DNA from: an uncultured Actinomycetes bacterium
GTDB taxonomy: Bacteria; Actinomycetota; Thermoleophilia; UBA2241
Direction: 5' to 3'
DNA: 64,000 nucleotides
Assembly (NCBI GenBank): GCA_963709345.1
Contig: CAVPVX010000011.1
Span: forward strand, 276,886-340,885
In this document: piece after piece, positions 11,209-63,322 of the stretch
Position numbering within the stretch: the stretch's first letter is position 1
How the letters are laid out: every line of letters begins with the position of its first letter
Translations under genes and position numbers: made by a program
Notes under the pieces: model-generated
Told to the model about the DNA's origin: nothing
The model's database searches: none
What the model saw: only the letters and a program-made list of their open reading frames with translations

Positions 11209-12464
11209 GGCGACTGAACTGGAACGACGACGTCGGGGAACTGGTGGCCGCGCTGCGCGCCCTGGCTCCGCCGCCCGACCAGGTGCGCGAGGCGGTCGAG
11301 GCGATCGTTGCCGACGTGCGCGCGCTCGGCGACGACGCGGTACGGGCGCACACCGCGCGCCTGGATCGCGTCGAGCTCCCCGCGGCGTACGGCGTCTCGC
11401 CGGGGGAGCTCACCGCGCGGCTCGACGCTCTCACCCCCGAGCTGCGCGCGGCGCTCGAGCTGGCGGCCGCCAACGTGCGCGCCTATCACGAGCGCGAGGC
11501 CGTGGTCTCCTGGCGCGAGACGCTGCCGCAGGGCCAGGTCGTCGGCCAGGAGATCGTGCCGCTCGCCGTCGCCGGGCTGTACGTGCCCGGTGGTCTCGCC
11601 GACTACCCCTCCTCCGTGCTCATGACGGCGATCCCCGCGCAGGTCGCCGGTGTGGAGCGCGTCGTCGTCTGCTCGCCGCCGCGCCCGGGCGGCGGCGCGG
11701 CCGCCGGCGTCGCCGCCGCGTGCGCGCTGCTCGGGATCGAGCATCTCTTCCCGATCGGCGGCGCGCAGGCCGTCGCCGCCATGGCGCTGGGCACGAGCGT
11801 CGTCCCGCGCTGCGACGTCATCGTCGGTCCCGGCAACGCGTACGTCACCGAAGCCAAGCGCCGGCTGGTCGGCGAGGTCGGCATCGACAGCCTCGCCGGC
11901 CCGAGCGAGGTCCTCATCATCGCCGACGAGAGCGGTGTGCCGGCCTGGCTGGCGGCCGATCTGCTCGCCCAGGCCGAGCACGGCTCGGGGGCTATGGCGT
12001 GCCTCGTCGACGTCGGCGGCACGCTCGCCGGCCCCGTTGCCGCCGAGTGCGAGCGTCTCTCGGGCGAACTCGGCATCGCCCTCGACAATGTCGTCATCGT
12101 CGCCTGTCCGGATCGCGCCGCCGCGCTCGCGTTCGGCAACGCCTTCGCGCCCGAGCACCTCGAGCTGCACTGCGCGGATGCGGCCGCTCTCGTCCCCGGC
12201 GTGCGCAACGCCGGCGCCGTCTTCGTGGGGCCGCATGCGGCGACGGCCTTCGCCGACTACGCCGCCGGCAGCAACCACGTGCTGCCCACCGGCGGCTCCG
12301 CCCGCTTCGCCCAGGGGCTCTCAACCGATGCTTTCCGCAAACGCATGGCTGTGGTAGAACTCGACGGTCCCGCCGCAGCCGCCCTCGCTCCGGCGGTGGC
12401 GGCGATCGCCGACGAAGAGGGCCTGCGCGCCCACGCGCGCTCGGCCCGACTCCACGCCCAGTGA
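11205..12464 (+). CDS. hisD: Histidinol dehydrogenase
   Basis: ATG at 11205 overlaps the hisG stop (ATGA). 419 aa; ...GGAQAVAAMALGT...SLAGPSEVLIIADE.... Confidence 0.9.
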   Translation: MRRLNWNDDVGELVAALRALAPPPDQVREAVEAIVADVRALGDDAVRAHTARLDRVELPAAYGVSPGELTARLDALTPELRAALELAAANVRAYHEREAVVSWRETLPQGQVVGQEIVPLAVAGLYVPGGLADYPSSVLMTAIPAQVAGVERVVVCSPPRPGGGAAAGVAAACALLGIEHLFPIGGAQAVAAMALGTSVVPRCDVIVGPGNAYVTEAKRRLVGEVGIDSLAGPSEVLIIADESGVPAWLAADLLAQAEHGSGAMACLVDVGGTLAGPVAAECERLSGELGIALDNVVIVACPDRAAALAFGNAFAPEHLELHCADAAALVPGVRNAGAVFVGPHAATAFADYAAGSNHVLPTGGSARFAQGLSTDAFRKRMAVVELDGPAAAALAPAVAAIADEEGLRAHARSARLHAQ

Positions 12465-12474
12465 GGAGCCGCAC

Positions 12475-13065
12475 ATGACCGCGCGTCGCGCAACGGTACA
12501 GCGCACCACCAGCGAGACCGACATCGCCCTGACCCTCGTGGTCGATGGATCCGGGGCGGCTGAGGCGAGCACCGGCATCGGCTTCCTCGACCATATGCTC
12601 GAGCTCTTCGCTCATCACGGCCGCTTCGACCTCAGCGTCAAGGCGAGCGGCGACCTCGACGTCGACGGCCACCACACCGTCGAAGACGTCGGTCTGGCGC
12701 TCGGAGAGGCGCTTCGCGAGGCGCTCGGCGACAAGCGCGGCATCCGTCGCTACGGGTCGTTCCTGCTGCCGATGGACGAGGCGCTCGCTCTGGTCGCGCT
12801 CGATCTCTCGGGCCGGCCGTTCTTCGCGCACGACCTGCAGCTTGCCGGCGTGCGCCTCGGCGCCTTCGACGCAGAGCTCACGGCTCACTTCCTGCGCTCG
12901 CTGGCGACGCAGAGCGGCATGACGCTGCACGTGCGCCTTCTCGCCGGCAGCGACGGCCACCACATCGTCGAGGCCGTCTTCAAGGCATTCGCGCGGGCGC
13001 TCTCCGAGGCGTGCGAGCGGCACGGGCGCGACGACGCGGTGCCGTCGACCAAGGGCACGCTCTGA
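12475..13065 (+). CDS. hisB: Imidazoleglycerol-phosphate dehydratase
   Basis: 196 aa; MTARRATVQRTTSETDIALTL...HHTVEDVGLALG..., the canonical IGPD sequence. A GAGGAG ribosome-binding site precedes the start. Confidence 0.92.
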   Translation: MTARRATVQRTTSETDIALTLVVDGSGAAEASTGIGFLDHMLELFAHHGRFDLSVKASGDLDVDGHHTVEDVGLALGEALREALGDKRGIRRYGSFLLPMDEALALVALDLSGRPFFAHDLQLAGVRLGAFDAELTAHFLRSLATQSGMTLHVRLLAGSDGHHIVEAVFKAFARALSEACERHGRDDAVPSTKGTL

Positions 13066-13070
13066 CGCTC

Positions 13071-13715
13071 GTGTCGCAGCCCGGGCCGCGCATCGCCGTG
13101 GTCGACTACGGCATGGGCAACCTGGCCAGCGTGGCGAAGGCGCTCGAACGCAGCGGCGCCGACGTGCGCGTCACGCAGAGCGTCGCCGCGGTGCGCGACG
13201 CCGCCGGCGTCGTGCTGCCTGGCGTCGGCGCCTTCCGTGACGCGGTCGCGCGTCTGGAGAACGGGGGGCTTGGAACCGCCGTCGTCGAGCGCATCGCCGC
13301 CGGCACGCCGTTCCTCGGCGTCTGCCTCGGGCTGCAGCTTCTCTTCGAGAGCAGCGGCGAGGGAGGCCGTCGTCCCGGCCTCGGCGTGCTCCCGGGCACC
13401 GTCGAGCGTCTGGAGACCGATCTCAAGGTGCCGCACATCGGCTGGAACGATCTCGAGTGGGGACCGGCCGGCGCGGGCATGGCCCGCTGGGTGCCGGCCC
13501 CCGCGACCGTCTACTTCGTGCATTCGTACGCGGCCGTCCCGGCCGATCCCGCGATCGTCGCCGCGACTACCGACTACGGCGGGACGGTCGTCGCGGCGGT
13601 GGCGCGGGACAACGTCTGGGCGGTACAGTTCCACCCGGAGAAGAGCTCGAGCGTCGGGCTGTCGCTGCTGGCCGCCTTCGTCGCCAACGTCCACCGGGAG
13701 GCGCACTCCTCATGA
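13071..13715 (+). CDS. hisH: Imidazole glycerol phosphate synthase, glutaminase subunit
   Basis: GTG at 13071 gives VSQPGPRIAVVDYGMGNLASV...; a class-I glutamine amidotransferase with an HPE motif near the C-terminus. Confidence 0.88.
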   Translation: MSQPGPRIAVVDYGMGNLASVAKALERSGADVRVTQSVAAVRDAAGVVLPGVGAFRDAVARLENGGLGTAVVERIAAGTPFLGVCLGLQLLFESSGEGGRRPGLGVLPGTVERLETDLKVPHIGWNDLEWGPAGAGMARWVPAPATVYFVHSYAAVPADPAIVAATTDYGGTVVAAVARDNVWAVQFHPEKSSSVGLSLLAAFVANVHREAHSS

Positions 13716-14437
13716 TCGTGTTCCCCGCCGTCGACATCCAGGCCGGCAAGGCTGTGCGGCTGCGACGCGGCGACTTCGACGACGTGACCGTGTTCAGCGA
13801 CGACCCCGTCGATCTGGCCAGGTACTGGCAGGACCAGGGCGCCGAGGCGCTCCACGTGATCGACCTCGACGCCGCCCGCACCGGCGAGCTGCAGAACATC
13901 GCCATCGTCGAGCGCATCGTCAAGGCGCTCGACATCCCCGTCCAGTACGGCGGCGGTGTCCGCGACGTCAAGGCTCTCGCCCTGACGGCGGGCATCGGCG
14001 TGCACTGGGTGATCATGGGTACGGCCGCGGTCACGTCCTTGGATCTGCTCGACGACGCCGTCAAGTGGCTGGGCGAGCGTCTCGTCGTCGGGCTCGATTG
14101 CACCGACGGCATGGTCGCCACACACGGCTGGCAGGAGCGGTCCCAGATGAGCGCCATCCGCTTCTCGAAGACCCTCGTCGAGCACGGCGTCGGGCGCGTC
14201 ATCTACACCGACACCGCCCGCGACGGCATGCTCGGTGGGCCCAACATCCCCGGGCTCAAGGATCTCGCGGAGGTCTCGCCGCTCGAGATCATCCTGGCCG
14301 GCGGCGTCGGCCTGCTCGACGACCTGCGCCGCCTCAAGCGCCTCGACGCGGCCACTGTGGTCGGCGTCATCGTCGGCATGGCGCTCTACGAGAAGTCCTT
14401 CACGCTCGCCGACGCCCAGACCGTCTTCGCCGGCTGA
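13712..14437 (+). CDS. hisA: ProFAR isomerase
   Basis: ATG at 13712 overlaps the hisH stop (ATGA). MIVFPAVDIQAGKAVRL..., a TIM barrel. Confidence 0.9.
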   Translation: MIVFPAVDIQAGKAVRLRRGDFDDVTVFSDDPVDLARYWQDQGAEALHVIDLDAARTGELQNIAIVERIVKALDIPVQYGGGVRDVKALALTAGIGVHWVIMGTAAVTSLDLLDDAVKWLGERLVVGLDCTDGMVATHGWQERSQMSAIRFSKTLVEHGVGRVIYTDTARDGMLGGPNIPGLKDLAEVSPLEIILAGGVGLLDDLRRLKRLDAATVVGVIVGMALYEKSFTLADAQTVFAG

Positions 14438-14449
14438 CGGCGGCCACCG

Positions 14450-15279
<830 letters not shown>

Positions 15280-46371: not shown

Positions 46372-49023
<2,652 letters not shown>

Positions 49024-49029
49024 GCCGTT

Positions 49030-49440
49030 TCAAGTCTCAGGAGCGCCGTGACCACTCACCCGCGTCGTGCGAATCGTCATGGAACGTCGGCGGCTGCGCC
49101 GGCTCGCATACGCTGCTGTGGCGCCGTCCAGAGCGTCGGAGACCGTCTGCCGGTCTTCCGTGACGCCGCTGAGGCCGCTGAGTCGCAGGCGGGCGCTGTC
49201 GCGGCGCAGCCAGACGCCGTCGTCGTAGAGCGCCCGGATGCCCGCGGCCGCCATGACCGGCGCCACATTGGCCTCCGGCAGGGCGTGGTCGTGGTTGCCG
49301 AGGACGATGAGGTCGGGGTGGAGGGCGTTCACACGGTCCACGGTCGCTCGCACCCGGGCGTGCGAGACGAACGATCCGTGGTGGTTGTCCGCGACGAAGG
49401 CGACGCGCAGGCCGCCGAACGCCGGCGGCACGTTGGCGCT
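49030..49440 (-). pseudogene. Metallophosphoesterase (YfcE/YaeI-like) N-terminal fragment, no start codon, motifs II/III collapsed
   Basis: The minus frame reads LRVAFVADNHHGSFVSHARVRATVDRVNALHPDLIVLGNHDHALPEANVAPVMAAAGIRALYDDGVWLRRDSARLRLSGLSGVTED. No in-frame ATG, GTG or TTG precedes it. It lacks the distal GHTH and other metal-binding motifs. Confidence 0.4.
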
Positions 49441-49523
49441 CGTGAGGGCGTCCCGGTTGACCCGCCGCGAGCCATGGCGGCATTCTGCCCCTGCCTGGTG
49501 CCGCCTCGGGAGCGTGCGAGTCC

Positions 49524-52500
49524 CTACCTCAGAATCGGGCCTGCCTCGAGCAGCCGGCCGCACTCGTTCGCCGGCAGGGGTCTGCTGTAGAGGAACCCCT
49601 GGATGGCGTCGCAACTCTCGTCTCGCAGGACGCCGAGCTCGCCGGGCGTCTCGACCCCTTCCGCCACGACGGTGAGCCGGAGCCGGTGGCCGAGAGTGAT
49701 GACTGACGCGGCCACCGCGGCATGCTCGGGGACGTTGGACAGGTCGTGGATGAACGAGCGGTCGATCTTGACCGTGGAGATGGGCAGGCGGACGAGGTGG
49801 CTGAGGGACGAGTAGCCCGTGCCGAAGTCGTCGAGTGCGATGCGCACGGCCATCGCGCGGAGGGCGCCGAGGACCTGGGCGGTGTGGCGCGGATCGCGCA
49901 TCGCCGCCGTCTCGGTGATCTCCAGCTCGAGTGAGTGAGCGTCGAACCGCGTGCTGCGCAATGCCCTGCGAACGGTGTCGACAAGGCTCTCGTCGTGCAG
50001 CTGGCGCGCGCTGATGTTGACGCCCATGCGGAGCGGACGCCCGAGCTGACGTTGCCACGCGCGTCCCTGGCGGCATGCCTCAATGAGGACCCAGGCGCCG
50101 ATCGGCAGGAGGACGCCGCACTCTTCCGCCGATGGAATGAAGTCCAGCGGCGCGATGACCCCGCGCTCGGGATGCCGCCAGCGGAGCAGCGCCTCGACGC
50201 TTGTGATCTGACCGCTCGCTGCGTCGACCACCGGCTGGTACTCAAGAAAGAACTGGCCGGCTTCGAGCGCGTGATGCAGTTCGCCCTCGAGCGCGAGGTG
50301 GTCGGCGCGCTCGGCATTCATGCCGACGTGGAAGAACCGCCAGCAGTGGCCGCCCGCGTCCGATGCCATCCGCAGGGCGGACGCAGCGTTGCGCAACAGT
50401 TCGTCGGCCGTGACGCCGTCTGCCGGGTAAACGGCGACGCCGAGGCTCACAGTCAGGTAGAGCTCGTGCTGCCCGACGTGGATGGGTTGTCCCACCGCTG
50501 CGACGAGCTTGCCCAGCGCGGTGCTCGCCTCGTTCGGCCCTGCTGCTCCGGGCAGCAGGAGCGCATACCTGCCCGCGCCGAAGTGCGCCAGCGTGTCCTC
50601 GGCGCGTCCAGCGCGCTGCAAGCGGCGCCCGACTTCGCCGAGCAGATCGTCGGTCGCGTCGTGGCCGAGCGACGAGACGAGGGTGTCGAAACGGTCGAGC
50701 TGCAGAGTGGCGACCGCGAACGACAGGCGCTTGCGCCCCGCGTGCTTGAGCGCCTGACGGGAACGGTCCTCAAGCAGGGTGCGGTTGGCGAGCCCGGTCA
50801 CGGGGTCGTGGAGCGACAGGCTCTGCAGCCGCTCGTCGGCGGTCTTCTGCTCGGTGCGGTCGACGAGCACGGCGGTGCCGCCGATGACGGCGCCATCGGC
50901 GTCGTGGAGCGGCACGGCCTTGAGCGTGATCCACAGTTCCCGGTCGCCGGCCGTGGTCCGGTACGGGCCTTCATAGATGCCCTCGCGGCCTTCGAGCGCC
51001 GCCTCCAGTGCCGGGAGCGGCCGGAGGTCGGCGATGGTCGTGCGGATGCTCGCCCCGGCGTAGTGCCGGGGCGAGCATCCGGCGGCGGCGTCAAAGGCCG
51101 CATTGCCCTCCAGGAACGTGAGCTCCCTGTCGTACCTGAACACGCCTACCGGGAGCCCGTCCACGAGCGTCCGATATCGCTGCTCGGATTCGCGCAGCGC
51201 GGATTCGGCTCGATGGCGATCGGTCACGTCGAGCAGGATGCCCTCCTGGGCCAGCGGAGAGCCGTCCGCGTCGCGGATCAGCGCGAACCGATCCCACACC
51301 CAGCGCTCCTCGCCGTTCGCGCTCCGTATTCGATACTCGGCTTCGCCGCGCCCGCTCTCCAGCGAGTCGAGTGCGGAATCCTCGAGCAGGTGGATGTCCT
51401 CCGGATGGACGACCTTCTCCCACTCGAAGTCCGGCGCCATGAGTTGCTCGGGGGTATATCCCGTGAGGCTCTGGTCGCCGCCGACGATGAACTCGTCGGC
51501 CCACGGCGACCGCGTCTGGGCGCGGTACAGCCAGCCCGGTATCGTGCTCAGCAGCGACCGCAGCCGCCGCTCGGTCTCCGCCTGGGCATCCTGTGCCTCG
51601 TGCAGTCGCGTCACGTCGATGATCATGCCGACGATCTCGGCCGGTCTTCCCGCTTCGTCGGCGATGAACACGCCGCTGTCGAGTACCCAGCGCACCGCGC
51701 CGTCCCTGGTCACGATCCTGTGCTCCGTCTGGCTGCCAGGCGATCCGGCGGTGAGGTCGCGCCGCATGTCGTCGACGACGAACTGGAGGTCGTCGGGGTG
51801 GACGATCTGCTTCCACGAGACCGCGCCGCCGGTGAACTCCTCCGGGCCGTAGCCCGTCAGCGCCCGGCAGCCCTCGCTCAAGAACGTCGTGCCCCGGGGG
51901 CCTTGGATCGCGCTGCGATAGGCGGCTCCGGGCAGGCTGGCGACCAGGCCGCTCAGCATCTCCTCGCGCACGCGCAGAGCCGCCTCGGCTTCGTGAAGGT
52001 CCGTGACGTCGGTGACGAAGCCCTCGAGGTGCTGGAGATCACCCGCGTCGTCGAAGACGCCGACCCCGCGCTCCCAGACCCATTTCTCGCGCCCGTCCTT
52101 GGTGCTGATCCGGTACGTCGTGGTCCAGGGCGCCCGGGCGGCGAGGGCCTCCTGCACCGTCGACCAGATGGTCTCGGCGTCCGCGGGGTGAGGTAGATCG
52201 GCGTACGATACGGCGTCGCCGCCGATCAGCTCCTCCGGCCGGTAGCCCGTGAGCTCGGTGCAGCCGTCGCTCAGAACCATCATGGTCCAGCCCCGGTCGT
52301 TGAGACACCGGTACGCCATGCCGGGGACGTTCTCGAGCAGCGTCTTCATCGCCCGTTCGCCTTCGGCCGCCCGTGCGTCGGCGAGCCCGCGTTCGCGTTC
52401 GGCGCGACGCTGTTCCGTCACGTCGACCAGGACGGCCAGCGAGCGGATCACGCGGCCGCCGCTGTCTCGCTCGGCCGTGGCCGAGAGCAGGACGTCGACG

Positions 52501-53666
52501 CTAGCGCCGTCTCTGGCTACCATCTGATATGGGACGTCCTCGCAGGATCCCGACGCGAAGAATCCGGGAAGGACTTCCTCCTGCGCGAAGCGCCGGGACT
52601 CCTCGGTCAGAAACTCCGTCGACCGCCGCCCCAGGACTTCTTCGGCGCTGTAGCCGAGGCGTTGAAGCCAGCGATCGCTCACGCTCAGCAGACGACCCTG
52701 GGCGTCGATCGAGTGGAGCATCACCGGCGTTCTCAGATACAGGGTCCGGTACTTCTCCTCGCTCTCGCGCAGCGCCTCGCCGGCGCGCTTACCTTCGGTG
52801 ACGTCGCGCACGATGAGGAGCATCTCGCCGTTATCCCGCGGCACGTGCCGCACCTCGTCGTACCGGATGGAGGCGGGCGTGGCCCTCGTCACCTCCGCCG
52901 TCACCGGTTTGCCGGTGGCTCGCGCGAGGGCGACCGCCTGCCGGATCCTCGCTGCTGCGTCCCCGGGCAGGTCCTTCCACGGCAGGTTGCCGGGCGACGC
53001 CGCGGCCAGATGGCCGGGATCGTGCGCCGCGGCATGCCGGCCGCCGACGACCCGCGCCACCGTATCGTCGGCGTTCAGATACAGATAGGTGTCGGGCAGC
53101 GTCTCTACGATGCCCCGGACGCCTGCCGCCGCGTCTCGCACGGCGTCCTTCATCTCCTTGAGAGTGGTCAGGTCGACGATCGTGGCGACCACGGCCTCGA
53201 GGGCGCCCGCGCTGCTCGTCAGCGGCTCTACGGCCACCTGCACCCAGGTCGACGGCAGTCCGTCGTCCCACGCCAGCTCGAGCACGATGCCGTCGACAGG
53301 CTGCCCCGTGCGCACGGCGTCGAGAAGGCCGGCTGCGGCGAGGTCGGCGGGCGTTCCGTCTTCGGAGACCACGGCGCCACGCCACTCGGGGATGTCGACG
53401 GCGAGGCTGCCGACGACGCGATCGCGCGTGACTCGCAGAAGCGTCGCGGCCCGCCGGTTCAGGTCGATGATGCGGCCGGACGGGTCGCACACGACGATCG
53501 CGGCGGCGACCGCGTCGACCGTCACGGATGCGGTCGGATGCCCCGCCGGCTCCGCCGACGGGTGGTCGCGGCCCGATGAAGCAGCCGCCGCGGCCTGAGT
53601 CTCGCCCCGCGCGGCCGGCTTCCTGCTTTCCGGTGTCCCGGTCGCGTCTTTGTGCTTCCTCGTCAT
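49524..53666 (-). CDS. Multi-PAS (about 8 PAS/PAC) signalling protein with a degenerate GGDEF (GAGRY, I-site RAED retained) and an intact EAL phosphodiesterase domain
   Basis: ORF 49524..53861(-); the likely start is ATG 53666 (MTRKHKD...). It has repeated PAC boxes (..DVT.....AE..). The GGDEF-domain motif reads [13 protein letters not shown]. The EAL domain has [26 protein letters not shown] and EGVE. Confidence 0.85.
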
Positions 53667-53802
53667 CGTCCCCTCGCGGCCACCGCCCTGGCAGCAGTCT
53701 GCCCAAACGGCCGCCTCCCACGCACGTGCTCTGCACGGACGGTATCGGCGGGTGGGCATCCGGGCTGAAGCGGTTCGCGGATTCCGGTACACTACCTCGG
53801 TC

Positions 53803-54963
53803 ATGAGTACCACCGCCTCAGAAGCACTCGTCCACCTGGACTCGCTCCGCGAGCGTCTCAAGGAAGCCTCCGGGCGCCTGGGATGGCTGCGGAGCTATCT
53901 TGACCCGCCAGGGCTGACAGAGCAGATCGAGGCGCTCGAAGAGCGCATGCGCGCCCCCGGCTTCTGGGACGACCAGCAACAGGCCCCGAGGATCTCCGCC
54001 GAGTACAGCCGGGCCAAGAGGCGCCTTGCCGACTTCGCCGATCTCGAAGGCCGCTTCGCCGATCTCGAATCCACCGAGGAGCTGCTGCGTGAGGATCTGA
54101 GCGGCGACGCCGTGGACGACGAGCTCCTGCAGGAGCTCGTGAGCGGCGTCGCCGAGCTCGAGGCCGACCTGCAGCGCGGGGAAGAGCTGCGCTTCTTCAG
54201 CGGCAAGTACGACGAGGGTGGCGCGATACTCACCATCCACCCCGGCGCCGGCGGCACGGAGTCCCAGGACTGGGCCGAGATGCTGCTGCGCATGTACCTG
54301 CGCTGGTTCGAGCGCCGCGGCTTCAGCGTCGAGGTCAACGATTCGCAAGAGGGCGACGAGGCGGGCCTCAAGAGCGCCACGCTCACCGTGGAGGGCGAGA
54401 ACGTTTACGGTCTGCTGCAGTCCGAGAAGGGCGTGCACCGGCTCGTGCGCATGAGCCCGTTCGACTCGGCCAACCGGCGGCACACCAGCTTCGTCTCGGT
54501 CGATGCATCGCCGCTGGTCAGCGACGACGTCGAGGTGGAGATCGACGACGACGACCTGCGCATCGACACGTACCGGTCCAGCGGCGCCGGCGGGCAGCAC
54601 GTCAACAAGACGAGCTCCGCGATCCGCATCACGCACCTGCCCACCAACATCGTGGTGCAGTGCCAGAACGAACGCTCGCAACTGCAGAACAAGACCGTGG
54701 CGATGCACATGCTGAAGTCCAAGCTGGTGGAGCTCGAGGAGCGCCACCTGGCGGAAGAGCTGGCGCGTGAGCGCGGCGAGGTGCTCAACGTCGACTTCGG
54801 CAGCCAGATCCGCAGTTACGTGCTGCATCCCTACCAGATGGTGAAGGACCTGCGCACGGGGCACGAGGTCGGCAACACCCAAGCTGTGCTCGACGGCGAT
54901 CTCGACGGCTTCGTGCACGCGTACCTCGTGTGGCGCGCCGGCGGGAGCGAGCCGCGCAAGTAG
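53803..54963 (+). CDS. prfB: Peptide chain release factor 2 (no programmed frameshift)
   Basis: It carries the SPF motif (...MSPFDS...) and GGQ (..[11 protein letters not shown]..). The N-terminus reads ...LRSYLDPPG as one continuous frame. Confidence 0.9.
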
Positions 54964-63246: not shown

Positions 63247-63322
63247 GGGCGACTAGCTCAGTTGGGAGAGCGCCTGCTCGACAAGCAGGAGGTCGTTGGT
63301 TCAATTCCAACGTCGCCCACCA
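63247..63322 (+). tRNA. tRNA-Val (anticodon GAC), 76 nt with encoded CCA; C rather than U at position 33
   Basis: Manual cloverleaf: acceptor GGGCGAC/GTCGCCC, D-arm GCTC-AGTTGGGA-GAGC, anticodon stem CCTGC/GCAGG with loop TCGACAA, T-arm GTTGG-TTCAATT-CCAAC, then ACCA. A TATACT -10 lies at 63229-63234. Confidence 0.8.

Follow-up and report, generated by a model that had tools for sequence, protein, structure and literature searches.

A predicted soluble c-di-GMP phosphodiesterase with seven PAS domains and a silent GGDEF domain in a Thermoleophilia genome

What does a sensor protein do when its GGDEF domain has lost the diguanylate cyclase motif but is still followed by an EAL domain, and what is the altered domain kept for? 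The question is raised by a gene in a 64,000-nucleotide stretch (hereafter the window) of contig CAVPVX010000011.1 (positions 276,886 to 340,885, forward strand; assembly GCA_963709345.1), from an uncultured bacterium of the class Thermoleophilia. The gene encodes a protein of 1380 amino acids (aa), identical to a sensor of the same length in a public collection (P0001), in which an array of PAS domains precedes the GGDEF and EAL domains. We propose that it is probably a soluble, homodimeric, multi-input phosphodiesterase (PDE) specific for cyclic di-GMP (c-di-GMP), in which the PAS stalk controls the EAL dimer, with the silent cyclase domain as a structural relay between them. The case begins with the coding sequence and its C-terminal domain (all coordinates are window positions):

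49524..53666, minus strand: complete coding sequence of the sensor PDE (1380 aa plus stop), from the list of open reading frames (ORFs) and the translation
49578..50282, minus strand: EAL domain, aa 1129-1363, predicted to be catalytically competent from a Pfam EAL score of 244.7 bits, its signatures and its superposition

A Pfam run, which the original prediction had proposed as a check, called several PAS families, a GGDEF domain at aa 952-1106 and the EAL domain, whose score against PF00563 (cut-off 31.3 bits) covers profile positions 3-236 of 236. The set of signatures that marks a competent EAL domain (PMC12900916, PMC5301497), with EGxE supplying the catalytic base (PMC12900916), can be read throughout: EALLR at 1158, N1217, EITE at 1249, DDFGTGYSS at 1279, KIDRS at 1300, EGVE at 1336-1339 and Q1356, giving the signature residues E1158, R1162, N1217, E1249, E1252, D1279, D1280, K1300, E1336, E1339 and Q1356. 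All the catalytic hallmarks listed in the original prediction are therefore present where it had placed them, and an EAL domain devoid of its catalytic Glu or Lys, the finding it had named as contrary evidence, was not encountered (E1158, E1336 and K1300 are all there). These signatures are identical to those of Pseudomonas aeruginosa MorA, and their columns are invariant or nearly so in an alignment of 59 homologues. The domain is 39-47% identical to the EAL PDEs MorA, RmcA, BifA and MucR, whose structures and biochemistry are characterised, and when modelled with AlphaFold2 as part of aa 940-1380 (mean predicted local distance difference test score, pLDDT, 92.9) it superposes at 1.3-1.8 Å on BifA, MucR, MorA and TBD1265, with BifA and MucR at 1.3 Å. 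The whole GGDEF-EAL model lies nearest to RmcA/PA0575 (template modelling score, TM, 0.75), followed by MorA, DosP and RbdA. Because the EAL signatures are complete and invariant or nearly so and the model superposes on known EAL domains, a function as c-di-GMP phosphodiesterase with a competent "class I" EAL domain, as originally predicted, is well supported by sequence and model.

Some tandem GGDEF-EAL proteins whose GGDEF domain is dead are pure receptors, and FimX and LapD are found among the PDB matches of the protein. Its main role could then be to serve as a c-di-GMP receptor or scaffold without catalysis, in the manner of FimX/LapD or of a "trigger enzyme", and not to act as a bulk PDE. 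We consider this extremely unlikely, as the EAL signatures of FimX and LapD are degenerate whereas all catalytic residues are intact here and invariant in the clade of close relatives described below; the similarity to LapD and FimX (E 1e-28 to 1e-37) falls well short of that to active PDEs (E 1e-93 to 1e-98), and the NCBIfam LapD model reaches 133.8 bits against a cut-off of 1020.

The second step concerns the domain that stands just before the EAL, with three features:

50349..50813, minus strand: GGDEF domain, aa 952-1106, silent and presumably catalytically dead (Pfam GGDEF 103.8 bits; high-confidence model; contacts replaced)
50565..50579, minus strand: GAGRY in place of GG(D/E)EF, aa 1030-1034, aligned to the GGDEF of MorA
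50595..50606, minus strand: RxxD motif of the I-site, RAED, aa 1021-1024, invariant in 21/21 clade members

In a HMMER alignment GAGRY sits exactly on the GGDEF of the active MorA, and the clade consensus at the former motif is G[AGS]G[ASTRL][FYLI]. The reading that the active-site motif is lost is borne out, and a canonical GGDEF elsewhere in the domain, which would have told against it, was looked for and not found: neither GG[DE]EF nor G[GAS][DE]EF occurs anywhere in the 1380-aa protein, which thus hides no canonical motif. We then compared the A-site of the protein with those of 21 close relatives from metagenome-assembled genomes (MAGs) of Thermoleophilia (the clade) and of 79 homologues that carry the canonical motif. 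PleD numbering was transferred by means of the spacing of DxDxFKxxND..GHxxGD and AKxxG(K/R)N, which is invariant in the canonical homologues, and not by a direct alignment to PleD, and the roles of the contact residues were taken from PMC7288161. Position by position, the comparison reads:

PleD D327, Mg2+ ligand: Q989 here; R or Q in the clade; D in 78/79 canonical homologues
PleD K332, phosphate loop: D994 here, charge reversed; D or E in the clade; K in 78/79
PleD N335, guanine contact: V997 here; E, V, D, A or G in the clade; N in 78/79
PleD E370 and E371, acids of the motif: G1032 and R1033 here; G and a variable residue in the clade; D and E, respectively, in all 79
PleD K442, phosphate contact: S1102 here; S or A in the clade; K in 75/79
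PleD R446, phosphate contact: G1106 here; G in the clade; R or K in 70/79
PleD D344, guanine contact: D1006 here, kept; D in 18/21 of the clade; D in 78/79

Seven of the eight side chains by which PleD contacts GTP and Mg2+ are thus replaced, and the same loss is found in all 21 clade members. What distinguishes an active diguanylate cyclase is missing, since there is no GG(D/E)EF, the Mg2+, guanine (N335) and phosphate contacts are gone and only the D344 equivalent is kept; judged by its residues, the diguanylate cyclase active site is dead. Nor does the domain keep the nucleotide pocket that would be expected of a degenerate GGDEF that senses GTP, and the replacements differ from one clade member to another. 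Binding of GTP and Mg2+ is not expected given the replaced pocket residues, and the freedom with which clade members vary at the N335 and E371 positions speaks against a conserved nucleotide site of any kind.

The original prediction had offered the degenerate GGDEF as a possible GTP sensor, an idea that does not survive this comparison, in which the contacts are replaced here and throughout the clade while the 79 canonical homologues keep them. In its strongest form, it would have GTP bind to the degenerate domain and allosterically activate the EAL, as in Caulobacter PdeA (CC3396, motif GEDEF) or in P. aeruginosa RbdA and RmcA. The architecture is indeed the same as in these GTP-regulated PDEs: RmcA (PA0575) and RbdA (PA0861) share with our protein a PAS array followed by GGDEF and EAL, the GTP-bound GGDEF-EAL module of RmcA (5M3C) is the best structural match to the whole module (TM 0.75, root-mean-square deviation 4.4 Å), the D344 equivalent D1006 persists in 18/21 clade members, and PdeA, whose EAL structures (3U2E, 4HJF, 3S83) are matched by ours, offers a precedent for a degenerate GGDEF upstream of an active EAL (cited in PMC7288161). 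The GGDEF domains of RmcA and RbdA bind GTP, however (PDB 5M3C and 5XGD are GTP complexes), whereas the GTP contacts are lost here; and PdeA, as PMC7288161 relates from Christen 2005, has changed only its motif and kept nucleotide binding, while in our protein the whole pocket is remodelled. With the K332 position reversed to Asp, the guanine-binding Asn turned into Val and anything from Glu to Gly across the clade, both phosphate-binding bases now Ser and Gly, and the contact positions free to vary, we regard GTP activation as very unlikely.

The fold of this domain is nonetheless kept, as seen from its Pfam score and the confident model. Among the clade relatives it is 62-90% identical, with 35% invariant columns versus 59% in the EAL, and it is better conserved than residues 1-306 (the disordered tail, the PAS1-PAS2 pair and the linker that leads to PAS3), for which the aligned clade homologues share 44-66% identity.

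The I-site tells a different story from the A-site. RAED at 1021-1024 is followed by five residues (TLAHF) and then by GAGRY at 1030, which is the canonical spacing and confirms the earlier reading of a motif kept at this distance ahead of the former GGDEF. The 21 clade members all have R1021 and D1024 while varying freely at neighbouring A-site positions, and the PleD R390 equivalent is K1053, a Lys also found in five relatives and replaced by Gly, Ala or Ser in 15/21 clade members. These residues (R1021, D1024, K1053) might bind c-di-GMP, in which case the silent cyclase would act, in addition to the PAS inputs, as a receptor of the substrate that its own enzyme degrades; possible outcomes are feed-forward control by the substrate, inhibition, or a dimer cross-linked through c-di-GMP. 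Besides the spacing, the contrast between invariant Arg and Asp and their variable surroundings and the presence of Lys in this protein are in keeping with such a role, and degenerate RxxD-bearing GGDEFs are established c-di-GMP receptors, with PelD entered in the receptor table of PMC7288161 and further cases published from Listeria, Bdellovibrio and Xanthomonas (GdpX6). On the other hand, the third base is lost from most of the clade; canonical homologues keep the Asp of RxxD in 79/79 and the Arg in 76/79 cases, so that part of the reason for its persistence may lie in structure or history; in ZMO1055, a PAS-GGDEF-EAL protein, mutating the I-site had a minor effect only (PMC12900916); and the fourth contact of the PleD type (R313, from the partner domain) cannot be mapped with confidence. 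As the third base is Lys here but lost in most relatives, c-di-GMP binding at this site is possible yet unproven, and we hold the receptor reading to be rather unlikely. PelD, PopA, Listeria PssE and Bdellovibrio CdgA likewise combine a dead A-site with a kept RxxD, but they are stand-alone receptors without an active EAL, and in the clade of our protein the full I-site is only partly kept. That a silent cyclase with an erased GTP pocket and an invariant RxxD was re-purposed as a built-in c-di-GMP sensor, through which the EAL would respond to its own substrate, seems to us unlikely; if true, it would mean feed-forward or threshold-setting control of the adjacent EAL PDE.

What, then, would control the enzyme? 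Upstream of the GGDEF domain, the N-terminal 945 residues were split at recurring D(V/L/R)T...helix boundaries and the pieces scanned singly against Pfam gathering scores, which gave the following array:

53511..53666, minus strand: N-terminal tail, aa 1-52, rich in Ala, Pro and charged residues and predicted to be disordered (AlphaFold2 pLDDT <50 for 1-52; no Pfam hit)
53169..53519, minus strand: PAS1, aa 50-166 (PAS_4, 34.0 bits versus a cut-off of 23.1; five-stranded fold in the model; structural matches to tandem PAS)
52788..53105, minus strand: PAS2, aa 188-293, the domain least clearly recognised by sequence (PAS_4, 24.8 versus 23.1 bits; fold supported by the model and Foldseek)
52404..52751, minus strand: PAS3, aa 306-421 (PAS_9, 53.3 bits; PAS_4, 39.7 bits)
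51993..52334, minus strand: PAS4, aa 445-558, of PAS_3/PAC type (PAS_3, 73.4 bits)
51600..51953, minus strand: PAS5, aa 572-689, of PAS_3/PAC type (PAS_3, 77.5 bits)
51210..51551, minus strand: PAS6, aa 706-819, of PAS_3/PAC type (PAS_3, 62.1 bits)
50844..51164, minus strand: PAS7, aa 835-941, immediately before the helix that connects to the GGDEF (PAS_4, 51.5 bits)

Each of these domains exceeds a Pfam PAS gathering score, residues 1-44 remain without a hit, and the count by this segment-wise scan is seven instead of the "about eight" first estimated. The array had also been called unusually long, which is true to the extent that seven exceeds the average of two PAS domains per PAS protein, but it is overstated in view of the recorded maximum of 19 (PMC10468136), and homologues of 1500-2200 aa with long PAS/GAF arrays are common. 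The seven folds are set apart by helical linkers. PAS4, PAS5 and PAS6 form a paralogous triplet with pairwise identities of 32-40% (PAS4 versus PAS5 40%, versus PAS6 32%). In an AlphaFold2 model of aa 1-306, the disordered residues 1-52 are followed by two five-stranded PAS folds, each with a long helix behind it, and this PAS1-PAS2 pair matches the tandem PAS structures of NifL, MmoS, FixL and DosP; with identities of only 14-19%, the likeness to these flavin and heme PAS proteins is one of fold only. No LOV-type Cys motif was found on reading the sequence of PAS3.

The array also differs between relatives at the PAS6/PAS7 junction. Most clade members (P0004-P0013, P0015-P0019, L003, L004 and L032) have a GAF domain of ~160 aa between PAS6 and PAS7, which is absent from the junction in the window protein (~51165-51209, minus strand) and in P0002, P0003 and P0014. 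This presence in most relatives and absence in others suggests that the sensory array is being remodelled within a narrow lineage.

Taken together with the intact EAL, this architecture leads us to propose the following mechanism. The EAL domain would hydrolyse c-di-GMP to pGpG with two Mg2+ or Mn2+ ions, held by E1158, N1217, E1249, D1279 and D1280, with K1300 and the catalytic base E1336 of EGVE taking part. As with other EAL enzymes, activity would require two EAL domains to pair so that the DDFGTG loop is positioned; the known need of EAL dimerisation for the placing of this loop (PMC5301497) fits a model of gating by the dimer. The seven PAS domains and their helical linkers probably build a parallel dimeric stalk that would pass one or more cytoplasmic signals to the catalytic end and control the formation or the geometry of the EAL dimer. 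The silent GGDEF domain, its fold kept and apparently under purifying selection, would be unable to make c-di-GMP and most likely also to bind GTP, and may act as a mechanical relay and dimer spacer between PAS stalk and EAL, as in DosP.

Some observations weigh against this view of a PAS-driven relay. That RAED is so strictly conserved is a hint that the GGDEF domain may be more than a passive relay. The search of the 945-aa PAS region against PDB sequences gave weak generic hits (3MR0 at 3.6e-10, FixL at 1e-6, LOV-HK at 4e-6), from which no ligand or cofactor can be assigned to any PAS domain, and the inter-domain geometry of the AlphaFold2 models is unreliable as evidence for a dimer mechanism. 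Furthermore, some GGDEF domains with a degenerate motif (GNDEF, GGDQF, AGDEF) can still cyclise (PMC12900916, PMC3974145); motif loss alone is therefore no proof of inactivity, although here the whole pocket is gone.

Among known systems, the proposed relay finds its closest parallel in Escherichia coli DosP (PdeO), in which PAS, PAS/PAC, a silent cyclase (EGTQF) and EAL follow one another and inter-domain helices carry the allosteric signal (PMC11543664). Like our protein, DosP is a soluble, PAS-controlled EAL PDE with a silent domain of GGDEF fold between PAS stalk and EAL; the GGDEF-EAL parts align at E 1.4e-68, and DosP is among the top structural matches. It differs in having two PAS domains, one of them a heme-PAS, compared with seven here, where the heme-PAS signature is not detected, and in its silent motif, EGTQF instead of GAGRY. 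The DosP equivalog model NF008467 reaches 342.7 bits against a cut-off of 857, in a match confined to GGDEF-EAL (aa 939-1371), the Tlr1612-family model NF053781 472 against 1600 bits and the DibA model NF045675 421.6 against 980 bits. As the NCBIfam models for DosP, Tlr1612, DibA, the PdeR-like PRK10060, LapD and others all stay far below their cut-offs and match GGDEF-EAL only, the protein is not an orthologue of any named PDE. The best sequence match with a solved structure is MorA (PA4601; 4RNH/4RNF; E 2e-98, ~39% over 425 residues), but MorA has an active GGDEF, is bifunctional and membrane-anchored, and lacks the Arg of RxxD (SQDD), in contrast to RAED here.

Consistent with a soluble enzyme, the Kyte-Doolittle mean over 19 residues peaks at 1.41, within PAS1 and the EAL domain. 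Since these peaks fall inside folded domains, we see no membrane segment, in agreement with the original prediction of a cytoplasmic protein without transmembrane segment. The start of the gene required a choice, the maximal ORF of this frame beginning at a TTG at 53861 (1445 aa). The ATG at 53666 was accepted because a purine-rich Shine-Dalgarno (SD) sequence, GAGGGG, precedes it and because ATG and SD align in 6/6 related loci, upstream of which the locus alignment diverges with indels as non-coding sequence would. A longer ORF from TTG 53861 or ATG 53759 was rejected, as relatives keep only the ATG and SD at 53666 and diverge further upstream, and so was ATG 53804, which would overlap prfB and is not kept in relatives. 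Long antisense ORFs, such as one of 753 aa at 49935..52196 on the plus strand, were treated as presumable artefacts of high GC content; no family or database search was aimed at them, and the domain hits all belong to the minus-strand frame. A tblastn search found no other GGDEF or EAL gene in the 64-kb window.

The surroundings of the gene comprise three further features:

53803..54963, plus strand: prfB, encoding release factor 2 (RF2, 386 aa), with its ATG at 53803
53667..53802, no strand: divergent intergenic region of 136 base pairs (bp) between the sensor gene and prfB, from coordinates and an alignment of seven loci
49114-49470, minus strand: deletion remnant of a Metallophos gene, between the sensor stop at 49524 and the secA stop at 49023

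The sensor gene and prfB are transcribed divergently across this 136-bp spacer, as first described. The cluster hpf-secA-prfB is a widespread housekeeping arrangement. The closest genomic loci all come from Thermoleophilia MAGs, with SecA 85-97% and RF2 86-96% identical to the window proteins, and the order hpf, secA, (Metallophos), sensor on the opposite strand, prfB recurs in 6/6 relatives (L001-L004, L030 and L032; 45613..54963 in the window). Because this conserved order puts the sensor gene between secA and prfB, it can be said to interrupt the housekeeping cluster. Between genomes, the neighbours in the locus are 82-97% identical and the sensor only 56-83%. Within the intergenic region, a GGGCA[GT]A[CG]T block (53696-53704, read on the minus strand), ~20 nt upstream of the sensor SD, is kept in 7/7 loci and is a possible -10 element. 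A second block, GTAGTGTACC[GC]GAATC in the sensor-strand reading, adjoins the prfB start codon upstream and is kept across the seven loci. Neither consensus sigma-70 promoters nor intrinsic terminators were found in 48900-54000, a result that is uninformative for an actinobacterial host of 70% GC. Rfam reports no c-di-GMP riboswitch or other RNA element in the window apart from one tRNA (63247-63319).

Both neighbours of the sensor gene show changes of their own. In prfB, the +1 programmed frameshift site TAT CTT TGA C is found in 6/6 relatives (L001-L004, L030 and L032), while the window reads TAT CTT GAC at 53896-53904 (plus strand), with one T fewer, so that RF2 is encoded here by an uninterrupted in-frame ORF of 386 aa. 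Either the autoregulatory frameshift has really been lost, or the assembly lacks one T through an error of the homopolymer or "frameshift-corrected" kind. In one relative (L032, the 2.0-Mb contig_23250) secA is split into three called genes at 12195-14686, which looks like the result of assembly indel errors and cautions that frame differences of a single base between these MAGs may have technical causes. On the other side, an intact Metallophos gene (289 aa) follows the sensor gene on the same strand in L030, L003 and L004 (48 bp downstream in L030), and no match to it was found in L001, L002 or L032. The remnant in the window matches only aa 43-195 of the intact L030 gene (66% identity, BLASTP); 42 aa are missing at its N-terminus and 94 aa, GHTHGGQ among them, at its C-terminus, and an in-frame deletion of 34 aa removes the GD metal motif. 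Pfam gives no hit to the remnant, whose identity rests on the BLASTP match to the L030 gene.

How widespread is such a protein? A GGDEF-domain scan of 1.84 billion representatives at 50% identity returned only ~five clusters combining G[AG]Gxx with RAEDT and ~seven more distant silent variants (GGGRF, GGQQF, AGSEF, GDHQI, GGARF), the rest near the top of the list being canonical. The presumed silent-cyclase subfamily has so far been seen in Thermoleophilia MAGs and in unnamed metagenome contigs.

The protein belongs to a very well-known kind and leaves current concepts unchanged. It adds a likely c-di-GMP-degrading enzyme to the Thermoleophilia, an early-branching class of actinobacteria in which most of what is known about c-di-GMP signalling comes from the RsiG-WhiG switch (PMC8325347). 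It is also a clear natural case of a GGDEF domain maintained after the loss of its entire nucleotide pocket, in support of the idea that PAS-GGDEF-EAL enzymes retain their silent cyclase domains for a structural role as relays. Should the invariant RxxD indeed bind c-di-GMP, this would be a PDE that senses its own substrate.

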